Sequence record: PQ356295.1
Reading direction: 5' to 3' (one strand)
Length of the DNA: 64,000 nucleotides
DNA from: Escherichia phage KKE7M
Position numbers and translations under genes: made by a program. Below, one piece after another: positions 1 through 10,566 of this stretch (the first letter of the stretch is position 1; each line of letters begins with the position of its first letter). A model generated the notes under the pieces. That model saw only the letters and a list, made by a program, of their open reading frames with translations. It searched no databases and was not told where the DNA came from.

Positions 1-14
1 CACAAGAAAAAGTA

Positions 15-43
15 TTGACAGTCTCTGAAAAACTTGATAAAGT
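15..43 (+). promoter_or_regulatory. sigma70-like promoter (TTGACA-17 nt-TAAAGT)
   Basis: TTGACA at 15-20, 17-nt spacer, TAAAGT at 38-43, about 55 nt upstream of first ORF. Confidence 0.45.
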
Positions 44-99
44 ATCCTCTGATAATTAATCTATCATAAACCCCCTCAAGGGGGTTATTAGGAGGAGAT

Positions 100-528
100 A
101 TGTTACCAGTACCTGTAATATTTGTAGAAAAAGCCTACTACTCTTTAGAACAAAACTGTAAAAGAGCTAAAAATTTTATTGAAAGTTTAGCAGAACAACG
201 TTACACTGTATCTAAAAAGGGATGGTTTAGAAATTCACAATATTTAGTCAACCCTTTCGGAGAAGTTCGTGTGTTGTACGGCAACACAGAAAACATCTTA
301 GAAAGAATGTTAGAACTAGATAGGATCTCCTCCTGTGATTATCAACTGTTGAAATTTTACGATGTGTCAGAAAACATTAAAAACTTTCTTGACGATTTGT
401 CTAAACGAAAAACAGAAGAAGATACAATACCAGTATCTATGGAAGAATTAACGTTCTTAAGAGATATTATGGTTTTTGAAGAAAACCCTGAAATTACAAA
501 AGAGGAGATTTTAAGTAGTGGCAAATAA
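100..528 (+). CDS. hypothetical protein (142 aa)
   Basis: ORF with AGGAGG RBS 6 nt upstream of ATG; no recognisable motif. Confidence 0.6.
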   Translation: MLPVPVIFVEKAYYSLEQNCKRAKNFIESLAEQRYTVSKKGWFRNSQYLVNPFGEVRVLYGNTENILERMLELDRISSCDYQLLKFYDVSENIKNFLDDLSKRKTEEDTIPVSMEELTFLRDIMVFEENPEITKEEILSSGK

Positions 529-1027
529 GTATGATCGTCCACCAACTGATTACTATCCTACTCCACAAAAATGTATAAATGCATTATTTAGTGTAATAGA
601 TTTTAATAACCTTAAAGAAGAAGGTTTTATTTTTGCAGAACCGTGTAAAGGCGCTGCTGCTGCAATTTATCAACATTTTCCAGAAGGATCAGAATATTGT
701 GAGTTAGAAGAAGGGAAGGATTATTTTAACCACGAATGGCATACTAAGCCGGATATTATAATCACAAATCCACCATTCAGACTTGCACTTGAGTTCTTGC
801 AAAAGAGCTTAAAAGAAGCAGACGTTTGCATATACTTGTTGCGTCTTGGGTTCCTAGAGTCTATTAAACGAAGGGAATTCCATAAACAGAATCCACCAAC
901 AAATTTGATTGTTCTCTCTGAACGACCATCTTTTGTTGCAGGTGGCACTGACAAGACAGCATATGCTTGGTACGTCTACGACCCAAAAAACAGGCTGGGT
1001 TTAACTCAACCTTTCTATTTTGTTTAA
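518..1027 (+). CDS. putative phage DNA N6-adenine methyltransferase (small Dam-like)
   Basis: GTG start overlapping upstream stop with GAGGAG RBS; DYYPTP near N-terminus and IIITNPPF (motif IV-like NPPF) preceded by EPCKGAAAA. Confidence 0.5.
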   Translation: MANKYDRPPTDYYPTPQKCINALFSVIDFNNLKEEGFIFAEPCKGAAAAIYQHFPEGSEYCELEEGKDYFNHEWHTKPDIIITNPPFRLALEFLQKSLKEADVCIYLLRLGFLESIKRREFHKQNPPTNLIVLSERPSFVAGGTDKTAYAWYVYDPKNRLGLTQPFYFV

Positions 1028-1040
1028 GAGGAGCATTTTT

Positions 1041-1271
1041 ATGACCGAGAAATTTATTGTTACTATGGAACTCACCTTTGATGAAGAAGATTTTGATCTT
1101 CACGTATCAACTAAAGCAGATAACATTCACACAACACAGAGTGTTGCAATCGCTATGTTCTTTAAACAAGCAATTGCAAAACAAGCTGAAGTGTGTGCTG
1201 GTTTAGCTGTAGAGTATGCAGAAGTTGTCAAGGTTCTTGAAAATGCTCGTAACAACGATTGGGAAGAATAA
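1041..1271 (+). CDS. hypothetical protein (76 aa)
   Basis: ATG 21 nt inside listed ORF, preceded by AGAGGAG RBS. Confidence 0.55.
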   Translation: MTEKFIVTMELTFDEEDFDLHVSTKADNIHTTQSVAIAMFFKQAIAKQAEVCAGLAVEYAEVVKVLENARNNDWEE

Positions 1272-1474
1272 TGGCATACAATTACTATCTGGTATATTTT
1301 AACGAAACTAAGAAAAAAGACACAGGGACTAATGTTTATGCGGAATCCGAAGAACACGCAAAAGCTATTGGTTCAGTGCTTCTTTCTAGAATAGCAGGTG
1401 AAGAAATTCCTGTAGAAGCTATCTTTGCAGAAGTTGATCCTGGTATTCAAGAAGATGATATTACCACTACTTAA
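1271..1474 (+). CDS. hypothetical protein (67 aa)
   Basis: ATG overlapping upstream stop (TAATGG); coupled translation. Confidence 0.5.
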   Translation: MAYNYYLVYFNETKKKDTGTNVYAESEEHAKAIGSVLLSRIAGEEIPVEAIFAEVDPGIQEDDITTT

Positions 1475-1531
1475 CTGTTGACTTTAACGTTAAGGTAGTG
1501 CATACTTCCTGTAACAGAACAGGAGGGTATT

Positions 1532-2194
1532 ATGAAGTTTGTACTGTATCATCGACTTTCTAAGAAGAAACAACAAGGCAACCAGTATGGTATAGAATCA
1601 CAGGAAGCAGATATCCAACGCTTCCTGGATTCACAAGAAAATTATACTATTGTAGGTAGCTTTGCAGAGTTTTATTCTGGTAAAGGCGATTGGAAGCAAC
1701 GTAGAGAGCTTGTAAAAGCTGTTAATCTTTGCAAAGAAACAGGTGCTACACTTGTTGTTGCTAAGGTTGACCGTCTTGGACGTAACACAGCTTCTGTTGC
1801 AACCTTGTTAGAGATGATTAATGTACGAATAGCAACGATGCCCTCCGCTGAAAATATGATAATAAATATTTTAGCAGTTCTGGCAGAAGAAGAGGCTCGT
1901 GCAATATCGGATCGTGTTAAGAAGAGCCTTAAGGTAGCAAAAGCGAAGGGAACGCTTCTTGGTGCAGCAAACCCTAAATACAAAAGAACAGATTATACGA
2001 AAACGGAAGAAGCAAAACGCTCAAAAGAGTTTGCGCTTTCTTTAAAAGATTCTTTAGTTGCATACAGGGCTTGTAAAACGCCATATATGACGATTGCAAA
2101 GCATCTGAATGAATCAGGAAAGAGAACTATTCGTGGGAGTTTGTTCGATGCCAAAGCGGTACAACGTCTTTGTGCAAAATTGAATATTAAATAA
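1532..2194 (+). CDS. small serine recombinase (resolvase/invertase family)
   Basis: N-terminal YHRLSKKKQ with candidate catalytic Ser, VVAKVDRLGRN resolvase core motif, C-terminal HTH-like segment; AGGAGG RBS. Confidence 0.75.
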   Translation: MKFVLYHRLSKKKQQGNQYGIESQEADIQRFLDSQENYTIVGSFAEFYSGKGDWKQRRELVKAVNLCKETGATLVVAKVDRLGRNTASVATLLEMINVRIATMPSAENMIINILAVLAEEEARAISDRVKKSLKVAKAKGTLLGAANPKYKRTDYTKTEEAKRSKEFALSLKDSLVAYRACKTPYMTIAKHLNESGKRTIRGSLFDAKAVQRLCAKLNIK

Positions 2195-2203
2195 GGAGGA
2201 AAC

Positions 2204-2407
2204 ATGGCAGTTCAATCTTTTGAGGAGACTGTTAAAAAACAATTCCTATCGAAGCGAGCGATGGTTGAATTTTTGCATTTTCTCGAAGTAGATAGGGTAC
2301 TTATTGAGACTACACCAGATGGTAACTGGCAAGTCTCGTATATTGCCACCAGGCATATCGTAGACAGTACGAAAGAAGAAATTTCGGAAGTTACGGTTGC
2401 TAGTTAA
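2204..2407 (+). CDS. hypothetical protein (67 aa)
   Basis: AAGGAGG RBS 5 nt upstream. Confidence 0.55.
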   Translation: MAVQSFEETVKKQFLSKRAMVEFLHFLEVDRVLIETTPDGNWQVSYIATRHIVDSTKEEISEVTVAS

Positions 2408-2418
2408 AGGAGTTAAAT

Positions 2419-2991
2419 ATGCGTTTAGCTTTTAACGGGAAGATAAGCACAGCAAACATATTATCAGCAATAGGATTATTAGGTAAAAAATTCACACCTT
2501 TCAGTTTACCCGTTTGTGTAGATTTTGATCATGTATTTGATATTAATAATCCTTCACGTTGTATCGCCAGAAGTAATATTGATAACCCAAGTGAAAATCT
2601 GTTTTATATTACTAAACCATCCCAAGCAATTTTGAATCAATGGGAAGCAGGTCTGATTAAACCAGGTAAATATTTTGCATTACTACCTTGTAAATCATTG
2701 GCTATAGAGGACAGTCTAAACTATGCAAACAATCTTATTGTTACAGCATTCATTGTCTCAGAAAAAGAAGAAACTGCGGCACTTGCAAACACTGTTAAAT
2801 CTTTGTATGATTCTTTGGGTGTTACTTACACTACATTCGTTTGTGAAGATATTCCTCATTGCGTTGAATTTGTAGTAAATGGTGTAACTGTATGTCGTGT
2901 AGAAACAACGCAAGATGAGGACGTTTTTATTACTGTAGCCGATGTAATATCTGAACCTGTGTTTAGTTACGCAGTTTCATTAACACATTAA
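2419..2991 (+). CDS. hypothetical protein (190 aa)
   Basis: AAAGGAG RBS; no motif recognised. Confidence 0.6.
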   Translation: MRLAFNGKISTANILSAIGLLGKKFTPFSLPVCVDFDHVFDINNPSRCIARSNIDNPSENLFYITKPSQAILNQWEAGLIKPGKYFALLPCKSLAIEDSLNYANNLIVTAFIVSEKEETAALANTVKSLYDSLGVTYTTFVCEDIPHCVEFVVNGVTVCRVETTQDEDVFITVADVISEPVFSYAVSLTH

Positions 2992-3001
2992 GGAGAAGGG
3001 G

Positions 3002-3328
3002 ATGAAAATAACGACAGAACAGGCTTTAATAGACAAAGGAAGGGAAATCTTAGAAAGTCATTTGGAGGATATTCAAAGGACTCCAGGGTATCTCGGCTGG
3101 CGTATACAAGAAGCCGTCGATTTTCTACCCCGAAAAAATAAAGAGATTGAGGTAAGATCTCTATTCCTCCTTGTTAAAGTAGATGGTGACGCTATATACA
3201 AAGATGTAGCGTCTCACATTGAACAAATAGAAGAAAAAGCCTACAAAGAATTTGCAGATCTTGTTGTAGAACATAATATAGAAGGTAAAGTTAATATCTT
3301 TATACTTATGGATTTTGAGGAGAATTGA
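3002..3328 (+). CDS. hypothetical protein (108 aa)
   Basis: AAGGAGAAGGGG RBS directly upstream. Confidence 0.6.
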   Translation: MKITTEQALIDKGREILESHLEDIQRTPGYLGWRIQEAVDFLPRKNKEIEVRSLFLLVKVDGDAIYKDVASHIEQIEEKAYKEFADLVVEHNIEGKVNIFILMDFEEN

Positions 3329-4071
3329 TGCTAGTATATCAAGAAATTAGTGTAAAAGATGATCAAGACCTGTTTATTATTGGTGATTTACATGGTTGCT
3401 TTGATTTGTACCAGAAAGGTGTTAATACTTTAGGTATCCGAGATCAAGATGTTGTTGTATCTTTAGGAGATCTTACAGATCGCGGCAAGCAGAATTTTCG
3501 TTGTACCGTTGAATTCACCAGAAAGCTAAATCGCTATGGTATTCGTGGAAATCACGAAGATATGATGATTAAAGGGTTGCTAGAAGGTGATAGACGATAT
3601 TACGAATGTTGGTTTCAGAACGGAGGCCATACAGTTCTAAATGAGTGTGGAGAAGAAGGTGCAACTGCTCTTGCTTTGATGCTAGAAGACTTACCTGTTG
3701 TACTTGTTGTCAATTATCGTAATATGAAACTAGGCTTTATTCACGGAGGATATCCTTCAGTTTTGGAACATCTGCCAGTGACGGAAGTTTTGCCATTTTG
3801 TTCGAATATGAATAAAGAACAAGTATCTCGATTCACAGAATCTTTAATGTGGGATCGTGATATGATAGATTGCGCCCTTGAAGGGATTCTTCTTCCTAGA
3901 GTTTCAGGAGTAGATTATGTATTTCACGGGCATTCTTATGTTCCTAAACCTGTGATTAGCAGTAATAGGGTATATATGGATACAGGATCTTGCTTCAATG
4001 GTAATTTAACCTTTGCATATTTTGATGATTCAAATACGTTACAATTTTATTCTACTTTAGAGGAGGACTAA
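3328..4071 (+). CDS. calcineurin-like metallophosphoesterase (Ser/Thr phosphatase-like)
   Basis: GDLHG, GDLTDRG and GNHE motifs in canonical order; GAGGAG RBS. Confidence 0.8.
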   Translation: MLVYQEISVKDDQDLFIIGDLHGCFDLYQKGVNTLGIRDQDVVVSLGDLTDRGKQNFRCTVEFTRKLNRYGIRGNHEDMMIKGLLEGDRRYYECWFQNGGHTVLNECGEEGATALALMLEDLPVVLVVNYRNMKLGFIHGGYPSVLEHLPVTEVLPFCSNMNKEQVSRFTESLMWDRDMIDCALEGILLPRVSGVDYVFHGHSYVPKPVISSNRVYMDTGSCFNGNLTFAYFDDSNTLQFYSTLEED

Positions 4072-4391
4072 TGTATAAAGTCACAATTAAAGAGACGGTA
4101 GGGAATATTACGAAAGAAACTACTATTGAAACAGAAGATGTTGAGTTAGTCAAAGAGCTTTTATTTCCAAAACCAGAAATAAAAGATAATGACGAACAGT
4201 TGGATGAAGATAATGAGACAGCAAGGGATAAATGGAAGAAACAACTAGCGGAGATTTGGAAAAAGCCTCAAGTAACGCCTCCATTTGATCCTCGTACACC
4301 TTATAATCCCTGGGAAATTGGAAGCCCTTGGTATACGTATCCTATTACTCCAATTGTTACTCCTAATATTATTCCCAATATTACTTGTTAA
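4071..4391 (+). CDS. hypothetical protein, Pro-rich C-terminus (106 aa)
   Basis: ATG overlaps upstream stop (TAATG); GGAGGA RBS. Confidence 0.55.
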   Translation: MYKVTIKETVGNITKETTIETEDVELVKELLFPKPEIKDNDEQLDEDNETARDKWKKQLAEIWKKPQVTPPFDPRTPYNPWEIGSPWYTYPITPIVTPNIIPNITC

Positions 4392-4401
4392 GGAGAAAAC
4401 C

Positions 4402-4980
4402 ATGAGCGATTTATTCTACACAGGTGTTGGTAGCAGAGACATTACAGACGAAGAATGGGACACTATGGTAGCTGTTGCAAAATGGTTATCTACATGGTTC
4501 ATTTTGCGATCTGGTAAAGCAGAAGGTGCAGATTCCGCATTTGAATGCGGGGTATATGATAGTGGAAACAATACAAAGAAAGAAATATACATTCCTTGGC
4601 CTTCGTTTAAAGGTAATGAGATAGAGGGAGAGGTTATTGTTCTTGACAGACCCGATAGTGTAAACTATGCTCTAACTTTGCAATATGCAAAAGAATTGCA
4701 TCCAGCTTGGGACAGATTATCTCAAGGTGCTAAAAAATTACATCAAAGAAATATCCACCAAGTTCTTGGCAGAGATCTTGAGAATCCAAAACCATCTTGT
4801 TTTCTTTTAGCTTGTGCAAATACAGATAAGAATGGAGATCCTTTAGGTGGTACAAGAACAGCTTGGATGTTGGCTAAAAAGTTTAATGTTCCTTGTTTTA
4901 ATATTCGAGGTAAAAGTAAAAAACAAATCTTCGAATTTATTAAACCTATTTTAGAGGAGAATGGTCTTGTCCAGAAATAA
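4402..4980 (+). CDS. SLOG-superfamily (DprA/Smf-like Rossmann fold) protein
   Basis: GVGSRDIT ... LRSGKAEGADSAFE resembles the DprA/SLOG nucleotide-binding motif; AAGGAGAA RBS; start trimmed from listed ORF to internal ATG. Confidence 0.5.
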   Translation: MSDLFYTGVGSRDITDEEWDTMVAVAKWLSTWFILRSGKAEGADSAFECGVYDSGNNTKKEIYIPWPSFKGNEIEGEVIVLDRPDSVNYALTLQYAKELHPAWDRLSQGAKKLHQRNIHQVLGRDLENPKPSCFLLACANTDKNGDPLGGTRTAWMLAKKFNVPCFNIRGKSKKQIFEFIKPILEENGLVQK

Positions 4981-5485
4981 TATAAGTGTCATTAAAGATA
5001 GCTTTATTGATGTAACAAACGATATTGTACCTACAATACAATATATAGTTGAGGCACAAGGTTTAAACTTCATACGTGATAAAGTTAAGATTGTTTTTCA
5101 TAACACTCCAGGTTTTGTAATAGTAGGTTCAACAGAAACGATGTATCCTACAGATCTGATCACTTTAGACAAAAACTTAACACAAGAAGAAGTAGAAATT
5201 CTTAACCTCTATTGGTTAGGTTTTAAAAGATATGAGGATACAGCTTTATCCCGAATGTCAACTATTTTAGCTAATATTCTGGTGCGGAAAATTTCTAAAA
5301 TATGGGATGAAGAAAACCCAGATGAAATAATTTTACACTTTGCTAAACCGGAAGACGGGGCATATGATATAGACACATCTGAAATGGCTTATGGGTTTAT
5401 TATTTCTGGTAATGTATTACAGATGGAATCTTTATTGTATGTTGAGACAGTAAAACACAATAACAATTACGAGGAGGTTGTATGA
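4961..5485 (+). CDS. hypothetical protein (174 aa)
   Basis: ORF overlapping upstream 3-prime end; GAGGAGAA upstream. Confidence 0.55.
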   Translation: MVLSRNNISVIKDSFIDVTNDIVPTIQYIVEAQGLNFIRDKVKIVFHNTPGFVIVGSTETMYPTDLITLDKNLTQEEVEILNLYWLGFKRYEDTALSRMSTILANILVRKISKIWDEENPDEIILHFAKPEDGAYDIDTSEMAYGFIISGNVLQMESLLYVETVKHNNNYEEVV

Positions 5486-5739
5486 AAGGTTTAGAGTTTA
5501 ACTTTGTAGATGCGTGGGAAGGATGGGATGAACTAGGAGTAGGGGATTTATGTTTTTATGATGTTACCTTGAAGGAAGAATACAAACATCTAGCTCCTAG
5601 TGAAGATTGCGATGTGATTCTATCTATTCTATTAAGTCAGTCTATAGTGCAATTCGATTTCTTAAAAGGTAGTGAATGTATTGAAAGTAAAGCATTCCGT
5701 TTGGAAGTTTCTCTTGGTGAAGAAATTCCTGTAGAATAA
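5482..5739 (+). CDS. hypothetical protein (85 aa)
   Basis: GAGGAGG RBS; ATGA overlap with upstream gene. Confidence 0.55.
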   Translation: MKGLEFNFVDAWEGWDELGVGDLCFYDVTLKEEYKHLAPSEDCDVILSILLSQSIVQFDFLKGSECIESKAFRLEVSLGEEIPVE

Positions 5740-5743
5740 TATA

Positions 5744-5766
5744 AACCCGCTTCGGCGGGTTTTTTG
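5744..5766 (+). terminator. rho-independent terminator
   Basis: ACCCGC-TTCG-GCGGGT hairpin followed by TTTTTG. Confidence 0.7.
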
Positions 5767-5795
5767 TTGACAACACCAGTTTTTTCGAATAAACT
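5767..5795 (+). promoter_or_regulatory. sigma70-like promoter (TTGACA-17-TAAACT)
   Basis: TTGACA immediately after terminator, 17-nt spacer, TAAACT; 26 nt upstream of next RBS. Confidence 0.5.
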
Positions 5796-5821
5796 ACAGA
5801 AAAACAGAAGAGGAGATTAGC

Positions 5822-6235
5822 ATGTACTATAGTGACTATTTTGTAAACCCAACAAAAGAACAACTTCAATCGGCAGTGGATAAGATGCAGATTGTAGTTA
5901 AAGAATGTGAGAAAATAAGAAAACAACTACAAGAAGAAACTGTTGTTGTTAATAAATGGTTTGGTCTTAGAAAGAAGGTTGTTAGTAAACACAATATCAT
6001 CCTTGAAAAAGCAAAAACGACAGGGACTAGTTACGCCTTACAAGGCTTGTTGCTAAATTACATTGATATAGAACAACATTCTCTTCTGCACTGTTGGCTT
6101 CACAGTCCTAGTATTGAGGATCTCTTGTTCTGGTTGTCGTGTGAATCTGTACTTTTAAACGAAAATGAGGCTTACCGTTTAAACTTCTGCCTTAAGGCAG
6201 AGTTACCAGCTAGTGTTAAGGAGAAGAAGCAATAA
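5822..6235 (+). CDS. hypothetical protein (137 aa)
   Basis: AGAGGAG RBS 6 nt upstream. Confidence 0.6.
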   Translation: MYYSDYFVNPTKEQLQSAVDKMQIVVKECEKIRKQLQEETVVVNKWFGLRKKVVSKHNIILEKAKTTGTSYALQGLLLNYIDIEQHSLLHCWLHSPSIEDLLFWLSCESVLLNENEAYRLNFCLKAELPASVKEKKQ

Positions 6236-7224
6236 TGAAAGTTTTAAGTCTTTTTGATGGTATGTCAGGAGGAATGCTTGCACTAAAAAGCGCAGGTATT
6301 GAAGTAGATAAGTATTATGCCTCAGAATTGGACAAATTTGCCATAGCTGAAAGCCAAGCCAATTTTCCAGATATTATTCAATTAGGTGATGTTACAAAAT
6401 GGAGAGAATGGGATATCCCGTGGGGAGAAATTGATCTTTTGTTAGGTGGTAGCCCGTGCCAAGGCTTCTCTTCTTCTGGTAAGGGTTTGAACTTTCAAGA
6501 TCCGCGATCTAAACTGTTCTTTGAATATGTTGAAATTCTTGAACATATTAAAAAGTTTAACCCTAATGTTAAGTTCATGCTTGAAAACGTTAAGATGAAG
6601 GTGGAGTGGGAAAACGTGATCACAAGTTACTTAGGTGTTGATCCCGTATTCATTAACTCCGCAGATTTCACGGCACAGAATAGGCAACGTTTATACTGGT
6701 GCAATTGGGAAATAAAACCTTGGGATATTACCAATGAAGTGTTGCAAGATATCATTGAAGATGATAGTATCGTAGACAGAGATAAGGCTTATTGCATAGA
6801 TGCAAATTATGCCAAAGGTGGTAATATAGAACAGTATTTTGAAAAGAGTCGCAGACAACTGGTTTTTTATCCGGCAGCAATATATGGGCGTAGAATTAAT
6901 GAAAATGGCAAACGTAGTACATCTAAAACTGATCGTTTGGTACATTGTTTGGAAGTTCAGGACAGTGAAAAAACTCGTTGCCTCACGACTGTGCCTAAAG
7001 ACGTACTACTAGCTTACATTCCACCTGGAAGATATCTAGATGCCTTTGAAAAATTGAGTGAAGGCGTACATTATAGAAAGTTAACGGTTAAAGAGTGTTG
7101 CCGCTTACAAGGTGTTCCAGATGATTACTTTAAAGTGAGTAGTAACACACAAGCATATAAGATGTTAGGCAATGGTTGGACTATACCTGTCATTGCGCAT
7201 ATTCTTAAATCTATGGAGGAATAA
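6235..7224 (+). CDS. DNA (cytosine-5)-methyltransferase
   Basis: Motif I LFDGMSGG, motif IV GGSPCQGFS, motif VI FMLENVK in canonical order; AAGGAGAAG RBS. Confidence 0.9.
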   Translation: MKVLSLFDGMSGGMLALKSAGIEVDKYYASELDKFAIAESQANFPDIIQLGDVTKWREWDIPWGEIDLLLGGSPCQGFSSSGKGLNFQDPRSKLFFEYVEILEHIKKFNPNVKFMLENVKMKVEWENVITSYLGVDPVFINSADFTAQNRQRLYWCNWEIKPWDITNEVLQDIIEDDSIVDRDKAYCIDANYAKGGNIEQYFEKSRRQLVFYPAAIYGRRINENGKRSTSKTDRLVHCLEVQDSEKTRCLTTVPKDVLLAYIPPGRYLDAFEKLSEGVHYRKLTVKECCRLQGVPDDYFKVSSNTQAYKMLGNGWTIPVIAHILKSMEE

Positions 7225-7346
7225 TGGAAACATTGTGGAAAGGCTGGAAGACTGCTCTGATAGCTTTTATAATTCCATTAACTTTTCTTGGTTGGTGTTT
7301 TTGGGAATTTATCTTTTGGGTAATTTCCCATATACATTGGGGGTAA
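7224..7346 (+). CDS. small hydrophobic protein (40 aa)
   Basis: ATG overlapping the methyltransferase stop (TAATGG), single predicted TM helix, stop 1 nt before next ATG; not in ORF track (<60 aa). Confidence 0.35.
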   Translation: METLWKGWKTALIAFIIPLTFLGWCFWEFIFWVISHIHWG

Positions 7347-7347
7347 T

Positions 7348-7959
7348 ATGACTCAAAAAGTTGCATATCAAGTAGATCGTGAAGATGGTGAAGGTAGCGT
7401 TGTAGTTTTTGATACACATGGTCTTGCAGCAAGACGCAGAGGCGCTTGTCTATTGGACATTGGTGGTGAAGATGAATACTGCACTGTACGTAGAGTAAAA
7501 GAATTTGATCAATACGCTGAAAAAGGTTTTGTACCTGCAAAAGCACTATTAGAAGCTGGATGGTGGATACCTAGTGCACATGATTATGATATTTTGGAAT
7601 CAGATACAGACGAGTTTAACAGTGAAAATTTTGTTTTCTCTCTGGATGAAAAATGCGTTTGGAAAGATTGGGATGAAATGGAACGCCATGCTTATTTTAT
7701 AAACGAAGCATTAGATCGTAAAACTTGGTTTGAAAATACAGTTAAAGCAGCGTATCCTCAATTTACTTTTACAGAGTTTTGGGGTGGCCCACACCATATT
7801 ACTCATGTGGCATACTTCGAGTTCCCAGGCTCACGCTATAAAGGTACTGTCTACTGGGATTGGGACGAGGACAAAGAACCTTCTGCTCAAGACTTCCGTT
7901 GCTATGTTTGTCAAGGTGATCAAGAAGCCCTTGACAAGTACCTTAAAAGTCTGGTATAA
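7348..7959 (+). CDS. hypothetical protein (203 aa)
   Basis: ORF tightly packed after upstream gene; no motif recognised. Confidence 0.6.
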   Translation: MTQKVAYQVDREDGEGSVVVFDTHGLAARRRGACLLDIGGEDEYCTVRRVKEFDQYAEKGFVPAKALLEAGWWIPSAHDYDILESDTDEFNSENFVFSLDEKCVWKDWDEMERHAYFINEALDRKTWFENTVKAAYPQFTFTEFWGGPHHITHVAYFEFPGSRYKGTVYWDWDEDKEPSAQDFRCYVCQGDQEALDKYLKSLV

Positions 7960-7976
7960 TCCGTAAAACTTAACCA

Positions 7977-8000
7977 AAGCCCCAAGCAGGGGCTTTATTT
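7977..8000 (+). terminator. rho-independent terminator
   Basis: AGCCCC-AAGC-AGGGGCT hairpin followed by TTATTT. Confidence 0.65.
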
Positions 8001-8013
8001 GTCTGGAGGATAT

Positions 8014-8547
8014 ATGGGTTTTGATGACATGTTATTATATGAGGAGGCTTGTGTGAAAGAAGCTATGGCTTTACCAGTTTTATCTATTGATATTACAACA
8101 GTAGACACTTTTTCAGATTGTGAAACGTGTGGATCGTATTCATCTATTGTACATGAAGTCAGTGGGGATTTAGGCACTTACGAAGATGGAGATTATGCAA
8201 GTTGTTTAGGTGATAATCGAGATGGTGAAGTGGCGAATGTTGCAAACTGGATCGCTTCTAAGTTAAAAGAAAGAAATCGTCCGTTCCCTAATCTTCTTAC
8301 ACCAGAATCTATGCTTAAAGCTGAACAAGAGATGGATGACTATGGTTATAAAGTAGATTATGACTATAATGATCCTACTTATAAAAAATTGAGTGACAAG
8401 TATTGGGAACTAGCTAATGCTTATGATAAATACTACTCTACAGAAAACATTGTTAAATTATTTTTAGATTTTGGAGTAGAAATTAATTGGGATTTCGAAG
8501 AGGAAGAGCGTTACGATGCATCTTATTGGGAGGACGAGGGTGAATGA
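8014..8547 (+). CDS. hypothetical acidic protein (177 aa)
   Basis: GGAGGA RBS before internal ATG of listed ORF. Confidence 0.55.
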   Translation: MGFDDMLLYEEACVKEAMALPVLSIDITTVDTFSDCETCGSYSSIVHEVSGDLGTYEDGDYASCLGDNRDGEVANVANWIASKLKERNRPFPNLLTPESMLKAEQEMDDYGYKVDYDYNDPTYKKLSDKYWELANAYDKYYSTENIVKLFLDFGVEINWDFEEEERYDASYWEDEGE

Positions 8548-9284
8548 TAGAACGAAAACCCTTACCAGATAGAGATTACTTGTTATCAAGGTTTAGTGTG
8601 GAGAATGGTCGTCTTGTTTGGAAACCTAAACCTTCTACAACAAAAGAGAACAAAAGGTGGAATAGCAGATACGCAGGGAAGATTGCAGGGACTATTGATA
8701 AAGTTGGTTACTCTCATGTCAAAATAGATGGTATTGTATATTTGGAGCACAGAATTTGTTTTAAAATGTATCATAATTACTGTCCAGATGTTATAGACCA
8801 TGACGACGGCAATAAACTTAATAATGCGGAAAGTAATTTATTGGATAGTAACTATTTATTAAATAATAACAATAGACACGTAGATGGGTTAGAAGGTATT
8901 TATGAAAAGGATGGTGTTTTTCTTTGGGTTATAAACTACAACCAAGAAACTTTCTCTGTTTCAGGTTTCAAAACTAAAGAGGAAGCTACTGTAGCTAGAG
9001 CTTTAGCAAAACAAGAAATTTTGAAAGGATCTTATATCAAAAAAGAAAAGAAGCGTATAGATAACACTTCAGGATTAAGTTGTGTGTTTGTGGCAACAAG
9101 AGAGAGAACATTCTTTTTCAAGTTTGTGTTTGACAAGACCGCTTATTGCAAATATGGTTTCAACGATCCAGAGAGATGTGCTATAGCTCTGGAGAAGTTA
9201 AGGTTGAAGGTGATGAAAGAAAAATATAAACCTGCAAATAAAAGCATTTGCGAAAAATATAAGGAGGAGATTTATGCCGCGTAG
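8544..9284 (+). CDS. HNH homing endonuclease-like protein
   Basis: YLEHRICFKMYHNYCPDVIDHDDGNKLNN matches the HNH_3-type motif (H..DH.DGNK.NN) typical of phage homing endonucleases. Confidence 0.7.
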   Translation: MIERKPLPDRDYLLSRFSVENGRLVWKPKPSTTKENKRWNSRYAGKIAGTIDKVGYSHVKIDGIVYLEHRICFKMYHNYCPDVIDHDDGNKLNNAESNLLDSNYLLNNNNRHVDGLEGIYEKDGVFLWVINYNQETFSVSGFKTKEEATVARALAKQEILKGSYIKKEKKRIDNTSGLSCVFVATRERTFFFKFVFDKTAYCKYGFNDPERCAIALEKLRLKVMKEKYKPANKSICEKYKEEIYAA

Positions 9285-10089
9285 AGTCATATTCATAACT
9301 GGCGCAGGACTATCTGTGGATAGCGGTATCCCAGCTTTTAGAACAGATACTTCTTCAGGGGAGGCGTTATGGTCTTCTTATGATCTTTCTGAGGTCTGTG
9401 ACATTTTCAACTTCCGTGATGGTTATCAGCAAGAACAAGGTGTTCTTGATGCTATGGGTGGTTTAGATGCGGAAGGATATAACCTCTACCGTAAAACTCA
9501 CGACTTTTACAATAAACGTCGCGTGGAATTAGCGAAAGTTGACCCGAATCCAGCACATCTTCAGATTGGAGAATGGTTCAAAAAATATGGCCCAGAACGA
9601 ATTCTTAACATTACTACTAACGTGGATGACCTCCTTGAACGAGCAGGAGTAAATAGGGAAGAAGTGCTACATGTGCACGGTTTTCTTCCTGAAATTACTT
9701 TTCAAAGAAAAGCTGGACAACCTACAATTGTAAAAGATGTTGGTTATCAAGCCATAGATGTAGATGACTACCATTATGTAAAACCTAATGTAATTTTCTT
9801 TGGAGAAGCTGCTCCACTTTACACAGATATGTATCATATTCTTGATACACTAACGGCTCAAGATATGGTTGTAGTAGTAGGATGTTCAAACCAAGTTATC
9901 AATTTTAATTGGGAATTATTCCCTGCACTTAATATGGGTACAAAAATGATCGTTGTTAACCCAGGAATTAATTACGAAGAAACTCTTCTTTACGAAGATA
10001 GAGGAGTCTTTGTTTATCGAGAAAAGGCCGCAGATGCTTTTAGCAATCCTGCTTTCATAAAAATGATAGAAGATCATTTGACTAAATAA
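9274..10089 (+). CDS. Sir2-family NAD-binding protein
   Basis: FITGAGLSVDSGIPAFR Rossmann motif (GAGxSxxSGIPxFR) and downstream HVHG catalytic His; AAGGAGGAG RBS. Confidence 0.8.
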   Translation: MPRRVIFITGAGLSVDSGIPAFRTDTSSGEALWSSYDLSEVCDIFNFRDGYQQEQGVLDAMGGLDAEGYNLYRKTHDFYNKRRVELAKVDPNPAHLQIGEWFKKYGPERILNITTNVDDLLERAGVNREEVLHVHGFLPEITFQRKAGQPTIVKDVGYQAIDVDDYHYVKPNVIFFGEAAPLYTDMYHILDTLTAQDMVVVVGCSNQVINFNWELFPALNMGTKMIVVNPGINYEETLLYEDRGVFVYREKAADAFSNPAFIKMIEDHLTK

Positions 10090-10097
10090 CTTAACCA

Positions 10098-10121
10098 AGG
10101 GGGCGAAAGCCCCTTTTCTTA
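10098..10121 (+). terminator. rho-independent terminator
   Basis: GGGGGC-GAAA-GCCCC hairpin followed by TTTTCTT. Confidence 0.65.
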
Positions 10122-10133
10122 TAGGAGAATATT

Positions 10134-10391
10134 ATGACCACAGAACAAATCGTTAAAGACCATTTTATGATGCACTACGTTTATTACTTCAATAATAATC
10201 AGCAGAAAGGTGAGGGATTTTGTTATCTATCCGCACAACAAGGTTTTGGTATCCGTCAAGCAGATATTAACGGGGCAGTAGCTGGGATTACAAAAGGCTT
10301 GGTTGCAAACCTTAAAGATAATGTTGTTGTTGTCCCAACGTGCATTTCTTATCTCTCAACCTGTCCTGAAGAAGATTTTATGCATTCCTAA
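10134..10391 (+). CDS. hypothetical protein (85 aa)
   Basis: AGGAGAA RBS; last gene of forward block. Confidence 0.5.
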   Translation: MTTEQIVKDHFMMHYVYYFNNNQQKGEGFCYLSAQQGFGIRQADINGAVAGITKGLVANLKDNVVVVPTCISYLSTCPEEDFMHS

Positions 10392-10461
10392 AACCTCCTG
10401 TAACGCATTCTAACGCACTTTTTATTTTAGTAATACGTTTCCCTACCTTATGCAAACAAAA

Positions 10462-10493
10462 GCCCCTAGAAGCGATTCTAGGGGCTTTATTTT
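10462..10493. terminator. bidirectional rho-independent terminator at convergent junction
   Basis: GCCCCTAGA-AGCGAT-TCTAGGGGC hairpin flanked by A-run and T-run, between converging blocks. Confidence 0.7.
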
Positions 10494-10566
10494 AGTCTTC
10501 TGTAAAATATCCTATGACAACAATGATAAAGATGATTAACACTACAATACTCTCTAATAAAGTCAT

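Follow-up and report, generated by a model that had tools for sequence, protein, structure and literature searches.

Two methyltransferase genes and a Sir2-linked, putative HNH homing gene as probably independent elements of the phi92-like Escherichia phage KKE7M

The stretch analysed here comprises 64,000 nt of the genome of Escherichia phage KKE7M (PQ356295.1; the window, read 5' to 3' on the given strand), in which an earlier note had pointed out a C5-cytosine methyltransferase and a putative small N6-adenine methyltransferase in one block, with an HNH endonuclease two genes downstream. It proposed that dual methylation would protect the phage broadly from host restriction and that the HNH gene was either a homing gene inserted beside the methyltransferase or a partner nuclease. 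The three open reading frames (ORFs; Table 1) are real, each is preceded by a Shine-Dalgarno sequence and occurs as a single copy in the window, and their positions were given correctly. Our analysis indicates that they are, in all probability, three functionally independent items, namely an orphan C5 methylase, a minimal N6-amino methylase and a homing gene linked to a Sir2 gene, in a phage that would counter restriction mainly by avoiding palindromic sites. Neither methylase would thus depend on the HNH gene, nor the HNH gene on the methylases.

A sequence search with positions 1–10500 of the window found Escherichia phage muut at 97.6% identity over the full length and ~50 further phi92-like records at 95–99% identity, which identifies the source as a phi92-like phage of the genus Justusliebigvirus (Stephanstirmvirinae). 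Gene order on the plus strand between 100 and 10391 follows that of phi92 (gp057 to gp037) and of the BASEL phage PaulScherrer, whose block with both methylases is 97.6% identical to the window.

The HNH gene sits between a homologue of phi92 gp039 and a gene of the Sir2 family; it begins within the stop codon of the upstream gene (ATGA) and shares its last 11 nt with the beginning of Sir2. Its product matches phrog_99 (E 6e-33), and the core residues H69, R70, D85, H86, N93, N94 and N98 are invariant in five sequences, down to 35% identity. The two homologues of ~70% identity have a precomputed PF13392 assignment, marked weak at their loci, and both, on other large phage contigs, lie directly upstream of a Sir2 gene and overlap it. 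The lineage is narrow (four clusters in 5.8 billion proteins), and no relatives of the C-terminal ~85 residues were detected outside it. Both methylases are retained in ~50 close relatives, of which only some four possess the HNH gene. Besides the window, carriers are muut, BME3 and KKP_3264 in Justusliebigvirus and nepoznato, ECML-183-2 and DIJ07P2 in Phapecoctavirus; the records of muut, nepoznato and KKP_3264 label its product only 'hypothetical protein'. In ECML-183-2 (OL631481.1, 79581..80316) the alignment of the homologue is split into two segments of 95% identity, and the gene may be frameshifted or decaying. On another large phage contig (L097), the HNH homologue is preceded by a gene (3374..3508) that encodes 44 residues compared to the usual ~180.

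Alignment delimits a cassette of ~1.35 kb in which the HNH gene and ~600 bp from the 5' end of Sir2 stand in place of phi92-type sequence. In comparison with phi92 and PaulScherrer, the window is 97–100% identical up to ~8525, where the HNH ORF follows; the first ~600 bp of Sir2 are only 57–64% identical, the last dense mismatch falls at 9873, and identity is again 99.5% from 9891. Relative to nepoznato, identity inside the cassette is 100% (9274–9303) and 94.9% (9304–9890), with the right-hand break at 9871, and in the flanks ~45–75%. Since the cassette is 95–100% identical across genera whose flanks share only ~45–75%, it has moved recently between the two. The left junction explains why the last ~8 codons of the gp039 homologue are unlike those of phi92. 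At the protein level, Sir2 residues 1–205 are 61% identical to phi92 and 95% to nepoznato, whereas residues 206–271 are 100% identical to phi92 and 73% to nepoznato, making the window gene a chimera. More generally, the N-terminal ~200 residues of Sir2 (NAD-binding and catalytic; NAD, nicotinamide adenine dinucleotide) occur as several alleles, 61–77% identical, exchanged between Justusliebigvirus and Phapecoctavirus, and the 66 residues at the C-terminus remain specific to each genus. The 3' part of the HNH gene contains, ~115 nt upstream of the Sir2 start, a promoter-like site matched by consensus only (9130..9158; TTGACA, a 17-nt spacer and TATGGT), so that the cassette may bring its own promoter for Sir2.

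Sporadic presence at one conserved site and transfer between lineages, the marks by which a homing gene is recognized, were thus both found, and the evidence fits a free-standing homing endonuclease gene tied to the gp039/Sir2 junction rather than to a methylase. The earlier suggestion of a homing gene beside the methyltransferase therefore holds as to mobility and fails as to site. In a mixed infection, the HNH enzyme would cut alleles that lack its gene at the gp039/Sir2 junction or close by, and repair templated by the carrier genome would then copy the gene in, the divergent, presumably cut-resistant 5' three-quarters of Sir2 being carried along. T4 Mob/Seg-type intronless homing is a comparable known process. 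Like the free-standing HNH genes of large lytic phages such as those of Certrevirus CB7 (PMC7344957), the window gene occupies a fixed intergenic site sporadically, overlaps its neighbours, is flanked by divergent sequence in carrier alleles and has been transferred between related phages. It differs from known genes of this type in its very narrow lineage and in its presumed target, Sir2 rather than a gene of replication or nucleotide metabolism.

Three observations speak against this interpretation. The match of the product to Pfam HNH_3 scores 21.6 bits, below the gathering cut-off of 24.8. A single-sequence AlphaFold model reached a predicted local distance difference test score (pLDDT) of 37, which made it unusable, and it was kept out of the fold search. 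Finally, the Sir2 segment of the Justusliebigvirus phages UAB_1, cardinal and PD114 is of the window type, and no HNH gene accompanies it. The UAB_1 sequence turns from phi92-type to window-type at GTGG/CGCAGG (the break falling between the two), in codons for G-A-G-L-S ~30 nt into Sir2. A partial co-conversion tract would look like this allele; it is equally possible that the HNH-free allele of the three phages is the ancestral state before HNH insertion.

Two other roles for the HNH protein were weighed. According to the first, which we consider improbable, the two methylases jointly confer broad protection and the HNH protein is their partner, either as in a restriction-modification (RM) system or by sensing methylation. 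Two intact methyltransferase genes of different chemistry are indeed present, and phage methylases can protect broadly, as M.EcoGII does (PMC5778455). However, most relatives that keep both methylases lack the HNH gene, and in nepoznato the HNH gene and the 5' part of Sir2 co-occur with a different methylase in the C5 slot. In the window the HNH gene belongs to another predicted transcription unit, lying three ORFs and a predicted promoter/terminator boundary downstream of the C5 gene, and PADLOC assigned neither the HNH protein nor Sir2, nor the two genes between them, to a defence system. A nuclease that co-occurs with a methylase as its recognizable partner, as in RM systems, was therefore not found, and we abandon the notion of a partner nuclease. 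The second role, that of a packaging accessory that stimulates terminase, is hardly credible. The paper on BME3 states a terminase role of 'HNH endonuclease' in general terms (PMC12210895), but the gene is absent from ~90% of near-identical genomes, unlike an essential packaging factor, it lies among small non-structural genes beside Sir2 with no terminase nearby, and its pattern of insertion and replacement is that of a mobile element. The homing reading is thus the one we retain for this gene.

The C5 assignment is confirmed. The 329-residue product, homologous to phi92 gp043, matches PF00145 over residues 1–328 (E 1e-43; 150.5 bits, cut-off 22) and TIGR00675 (141 bits, cut-off 100.65). Its motifs stand in canonical order, with FDGMSGG at residue 7, PCQ at 74, ENV at 117, QNRQR at 148, RKLTVKE at 281 and GNG at 312, so that the landmarks I, IV (PCQ), VI (ENV), VIII, IX and X are complete, and a search of the PDB matched the catalytic domain to DNMT3A/B, M.HaeIII and M.HhaI. 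Judged by these features it is a canonical orphan C5-cytosine DNA methyltransferase, equal to phage and prokaryotic orphan enzymes of the PF00145 family (M.HhaI, M.HaeIII, the DNMT3 catalytic domain) in size, ten-motif order, catalytic PCQ cysteine and ENV, and different from them in the variable, target-recognition region (~residues 160–275). PaulScherrer annotation calls it a 'Dcm-like C5 cytosine methyltransferase'. Orthology to Escherichia coli Dcm was rejected, since the NF007772 score was 29.5 bits against a cut-off of 710 and BLASTP identity to the MG1655 protein was 24%, confined to the conserved motifs, with an unlike variable region.

Methylation of a single short motif in phage DNA as it replicates is the enzyme's most likely activity, and for that reason it would shield the DNA only against the few restriction enzymes that share the motif. 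Several results fail to favour any particular target motif and count against us here. The variable region matched no solved or characterized enzyme. A test for deamination hot spots of 5-methylcytosine in four aligned genomes (the window, muut, A150 and PD211; 22,565 C sites and 2,244 transitions) was underpowered and confounded: its top contexts GAC, GGC and AAC were codon third-position effects, enrichment was seen at no palindrome, and CCWGG, the control for host Dcm, remained flat at 0.9–1.4x. A search of IMG/VR for close relatives with which to enlarge the data set returned only homologues of at most 56% identity. In the literature searched, no methylome or restriction-digest data for Justusliebigvirus or Phapecoctavirus and no enzymology for Justusliebigvirus were found, and the rV5 paper mentions neither restriction nor methylation.

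The C5 slot of nepoznato holds a different, 227-residue C5-like methylase with 25% identity over motifs I–VI, preceded, two genes upstream, by a separate small HNH gene (locus coordinates 423..755 for the HNH gene and 1148..1831 for the methylase).

The small methyltransferase, homologous to phi92 gp056, contains an X-like motif (DYYPTP), motif I (FAEPCKGAAA) and motif IV (NPPF) in its 169 residues. It has no Pfam or NCBIfam match at E ≤ 0.01 and no sequence match in the PDB; a match to phrog_799 (E 1.7e-56) was the earlier basis of its methyltransferase label, and the PaulScherrer annotation reads 'putative N6 adenine methyltransferase'. An alignment of 44 diverse members of its family, which are stand-alone proteins of ~160–200 residues, revealed the conserved order D-x-Y-x-TP, F-x-EPC-x-G, an acidic E, DY and D-x-IITNPPF, an order of X, I, II/III and IV that we take to be that of gamma-class amino-methyltransferases. 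Sub-threshold Pfam matches in these 44 members were all to adenine-methylase models (EcoRI_methylase in 40, MTS in 23, N6_Mtase and Dam in 13 each, Eco57I in 11), and a profile search against the PDB yielded marginal hits only, the best being HsdM of StySJI (E 0.009), followed by DpnA, METTL5 and ErmC. The alignment-based AlphaFold model is confident (pLDDT 90.7; predicted template modelling score 0.87), and a fold search showed it to resemble METTL5, M.TaqI and HsdM. Motif I for S-adenosylmethionine (SAM), followed by a catalytic (D/N)PP(Y/F) motif IV, is thus present in a Rossmann-like fold. We conclude from motifs and model that the gene encodes a putative SAM-dependent N6-amino methyltransferase made up of a gamma-type catalytic domain alone. 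The earlier assignment stands as far as the N6-amino type goes, with DNA adenine as a plausible substrate.

The protein ends ~30 residues past the core and has no target-recognition domain (TRD). This is not a truncation but the norm of the family, because nearly all of the 150 best-scoring clusters measure 160–220 residues; an exhaustive profile search returned 13,975 representative clusters (E ≤ 0.001), 7,077 of them with E ≤ 1e-10. Longer members had no informative extra domain or fusion, and no conserved partner ORF was seen among the neighbouring genes compared. The overlapping upstream ORF (100..528; phrog_15078) was rejected as a partner, since a distant homologue is preceded by an unrelated ORF (phrog_335, phosphatase-like). 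The small methylase gene is present in 494 phage records from Justusliebigvirus, Phapecoctavirus, Vequintavirus, Seunavirus and others. Compared with gamma-class N6-adenine DNA methylases (M.TaqI, MmeI, M.BseCI and the Type I HsdM), it is far shorter (169 residues versus 380–750), lacks a TRD or specificity subunit and stays below every curated family threshold. It resembles the small phage 'Dam' (PF05869) in being phage-borne and of similar small size (profile length 169), with sub-threshold matches only (13 of the 44 members, best E 0.006), and differs from M.EcoGII, a 349-residue beta-class enzyme that has a TRD; both PF05869 and M.EcoGII are phage adenine methylases thought to counter restriction. 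On metagenomic phage contigs (L008/L009), a distant homologue carries a Cys4 zinc-ribbon insert and adjoins genes for a protein like phosphoribosyl pyrophosphate synthetase, NAMPT, a Metallophos phosphatase and RtcB, a neighbourhood that looks like NAD salvage plus RNA repair.

Conserved across the rV5/phi92 supergroup, the small enzyme most likely makes N6-methyladenine (m6A) in nucleic acid, with DNA as the default guess. Its structural neighbours include rRNA and DNA enzymes at similar Z, and the two best are the rRNA m6A methylases METTL5 and PH1948, a result unfavourable to DNA as the target, so that the substrate may be another one. We therefore weighed the alternative that the TRD-less enzyme methylates RNA (rRNA or tRNA of host or phage, in the manner of METTL5/PH1948 or Erm/KsgA) or protein (in that of HemK/Mtq2) and tunes translation during infection, which is possible but doubtful. 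Identity to METTL5 and PH1948, single-domain rRNA m6A methylases, is only 18%; METTL5 needs its partner TRMT112, whereas the phage enzyme has no conserved partner that we could see; and, unlike both, it belongs to a family of phage genes that annotations call DNA methylases.

The broad protection that the two genes had been expected to give is contradicted by phenotype, since three phi92-like phages, including PaulScherrer, were reported as exceptionally susceptible to the RM systems tested in BASEL, which represented types I, II and III with two systems apiece (EcoKI, EcoCFT_I, EcoRI, EcoRV, EcoCFT_II and EcoP1_I; PMC8594841). PaulScherrer, phenotyped there, carries both methylase genes. Each of the six systems is known to be blocked when its recognition sites carry N6-methyladenine. 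Taken together with the sensitivity, this speaks against the view that the TRD-less enzyme is a DNA adenine methylase both efficient and non-specific, like M.EcoGII, which makes DNA resistant to many enzymes (PMC5778455). The gene is kept throughout the rV5/phi92 supergroup despite restriction hypersensitivity. A reading that builds on this, unlikely on present evidence, is that the enzyme is no anti-restriction DNA methylase at all and instead writes m6A on RNA (rRNA or tRNA) or on a special DNA structure, reprogramming translation or replication during infection.

Avoidance of palindromes is extreme. In the window, 24 of the 64 hexamer palindromes are absent; of the 47 whose Markov-expected count is 4 or more, 12 are absent, versus none of 3,558 non-palindromic hexamers. 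Those absent include AAGCTT (18.4 expected), CGATCG (10.7), GGATCC (9.6) and CTGCAG (8.2). Shorter or degenerate sites are also strongly depleted: GGCC occurs 19 times against 67 expected (0.28), CCGG at 0.45 of expectation, GGWCC once against 17.5 and CCSGG twice against 9.8. No avoidance was found for GAATTC, GATATC, GATC, GCGC, CGCG and CCWGG, and the sites of both type II enzymes to which the BASEL phages were sensitive are among those left non-avoided. Palindromic site avoidance rather than methylation thus appears to be the main basis of anti-restriction in this phage, and the targets of a protective methylase, if any, most likely lie among the non-avoided motifs. Palindrome avoidance predicts which restriction systems stop these therapeutically used broad-host-range phages and which do not.

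Orphan C5 and N6 methylases together with free-standing HNH genes are standard in large lytic phages; the related phage Certrevirus CB7 combines such methylases with many free-standing HNH homing genes (PMC7344957). Both methylases are already annotated in published near-identical genomes. The HNH gene has so far been a 'hypothetical protein' in the relatives examined, so its identification as part of a Sir2-linked mobile cassette adds a little; a cassette that swaps three-quarters of Sir2 between two genera would illustrate cleanly how, in nature, an endonuclease can drive the replacement of an allele. The remaining novelty lies in the huge family of TRD-less mini-methyltransferases, which has no curated model and whose substrate could prove other than DNA.

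Table 1. Features of the window discussed in the text, with the evidence or remark for each
Feature	Position	Strand	Basis or remark
Stand-alone N6-amino-type methyltransferase catalytic domain, 169 residues, phi92 gp056 homologue	518..1027	+	motifs, model
Terminator-like hairpin	5743-5762	+	consensus scan only
Promoter-like site	5767-5795	+	consensus scan only
C5-cytosine DNA methyltransferase, 329 residues, phi92 gp043 homologue	6235..7224	+	Pfam, NCBIfam, motifs
Sigma-70-like promoter, perfect consensus	7931-7960	+	consensus scan only; ahead of gp039-HNH-Sir2 unit
Hairpin	7976-7996	+	consensus scan only; ahead of gp039-HNH-Sir2 unit
gp039 homologue	7999..8547	+	last ~8 codons unlike phi92
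Mobile cassette, ~1.35 kb (HNH gene and first ~600 bp of Sir2)	~8525..9870		alignment
Free-standing HNH (HNH_3-type) homing endonuclease gene	8544..9284	+	phrog_99, core residues, distribution
Sir2-family gene, chimeric relative to phi92	9274..10089	+	probable target or co-converted neighbour of HNH gene

Both methylase genes do lie in one colinear block, as had been noted, but in different predicted transcription units: the hairpin and promoter-like site at 5743..5795 are predicted to part the unit of the small methylase from that of the C5 gene. Between the two methylase genes is a gene for a serine recombinase or DNA invertase (1532..2194; Pfam Resolvase E 8e-22, phrog_125), carried here by a virulent myovirus. 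An ORF of 190 codons (2419..2991) has the PHROG label 'histidyl tRNA synthetase' and no Pfam match, and a second ORF of similar size, muut gp076, bears the same label, which is probably unreliable in both cases. As on the contigs with the distant homologue of the small methylase (L008/L009), the block holds a gene for a Metallophos phosphatase; it also has the NAD-dependent Sir2. Among the database records compared, four GenBank entries named 'Campylobacter phage' (host Campylobacter jejuni), A150 (MG065639.1, flagged UNVERIFIED), C3 (MG065656.1), A145 (MG065645.1) and D1 (MG065646.1), are ~97% identical to phi92-like coliphages or have rV5-like genes, and their Campylobacter host labels look doubtful.

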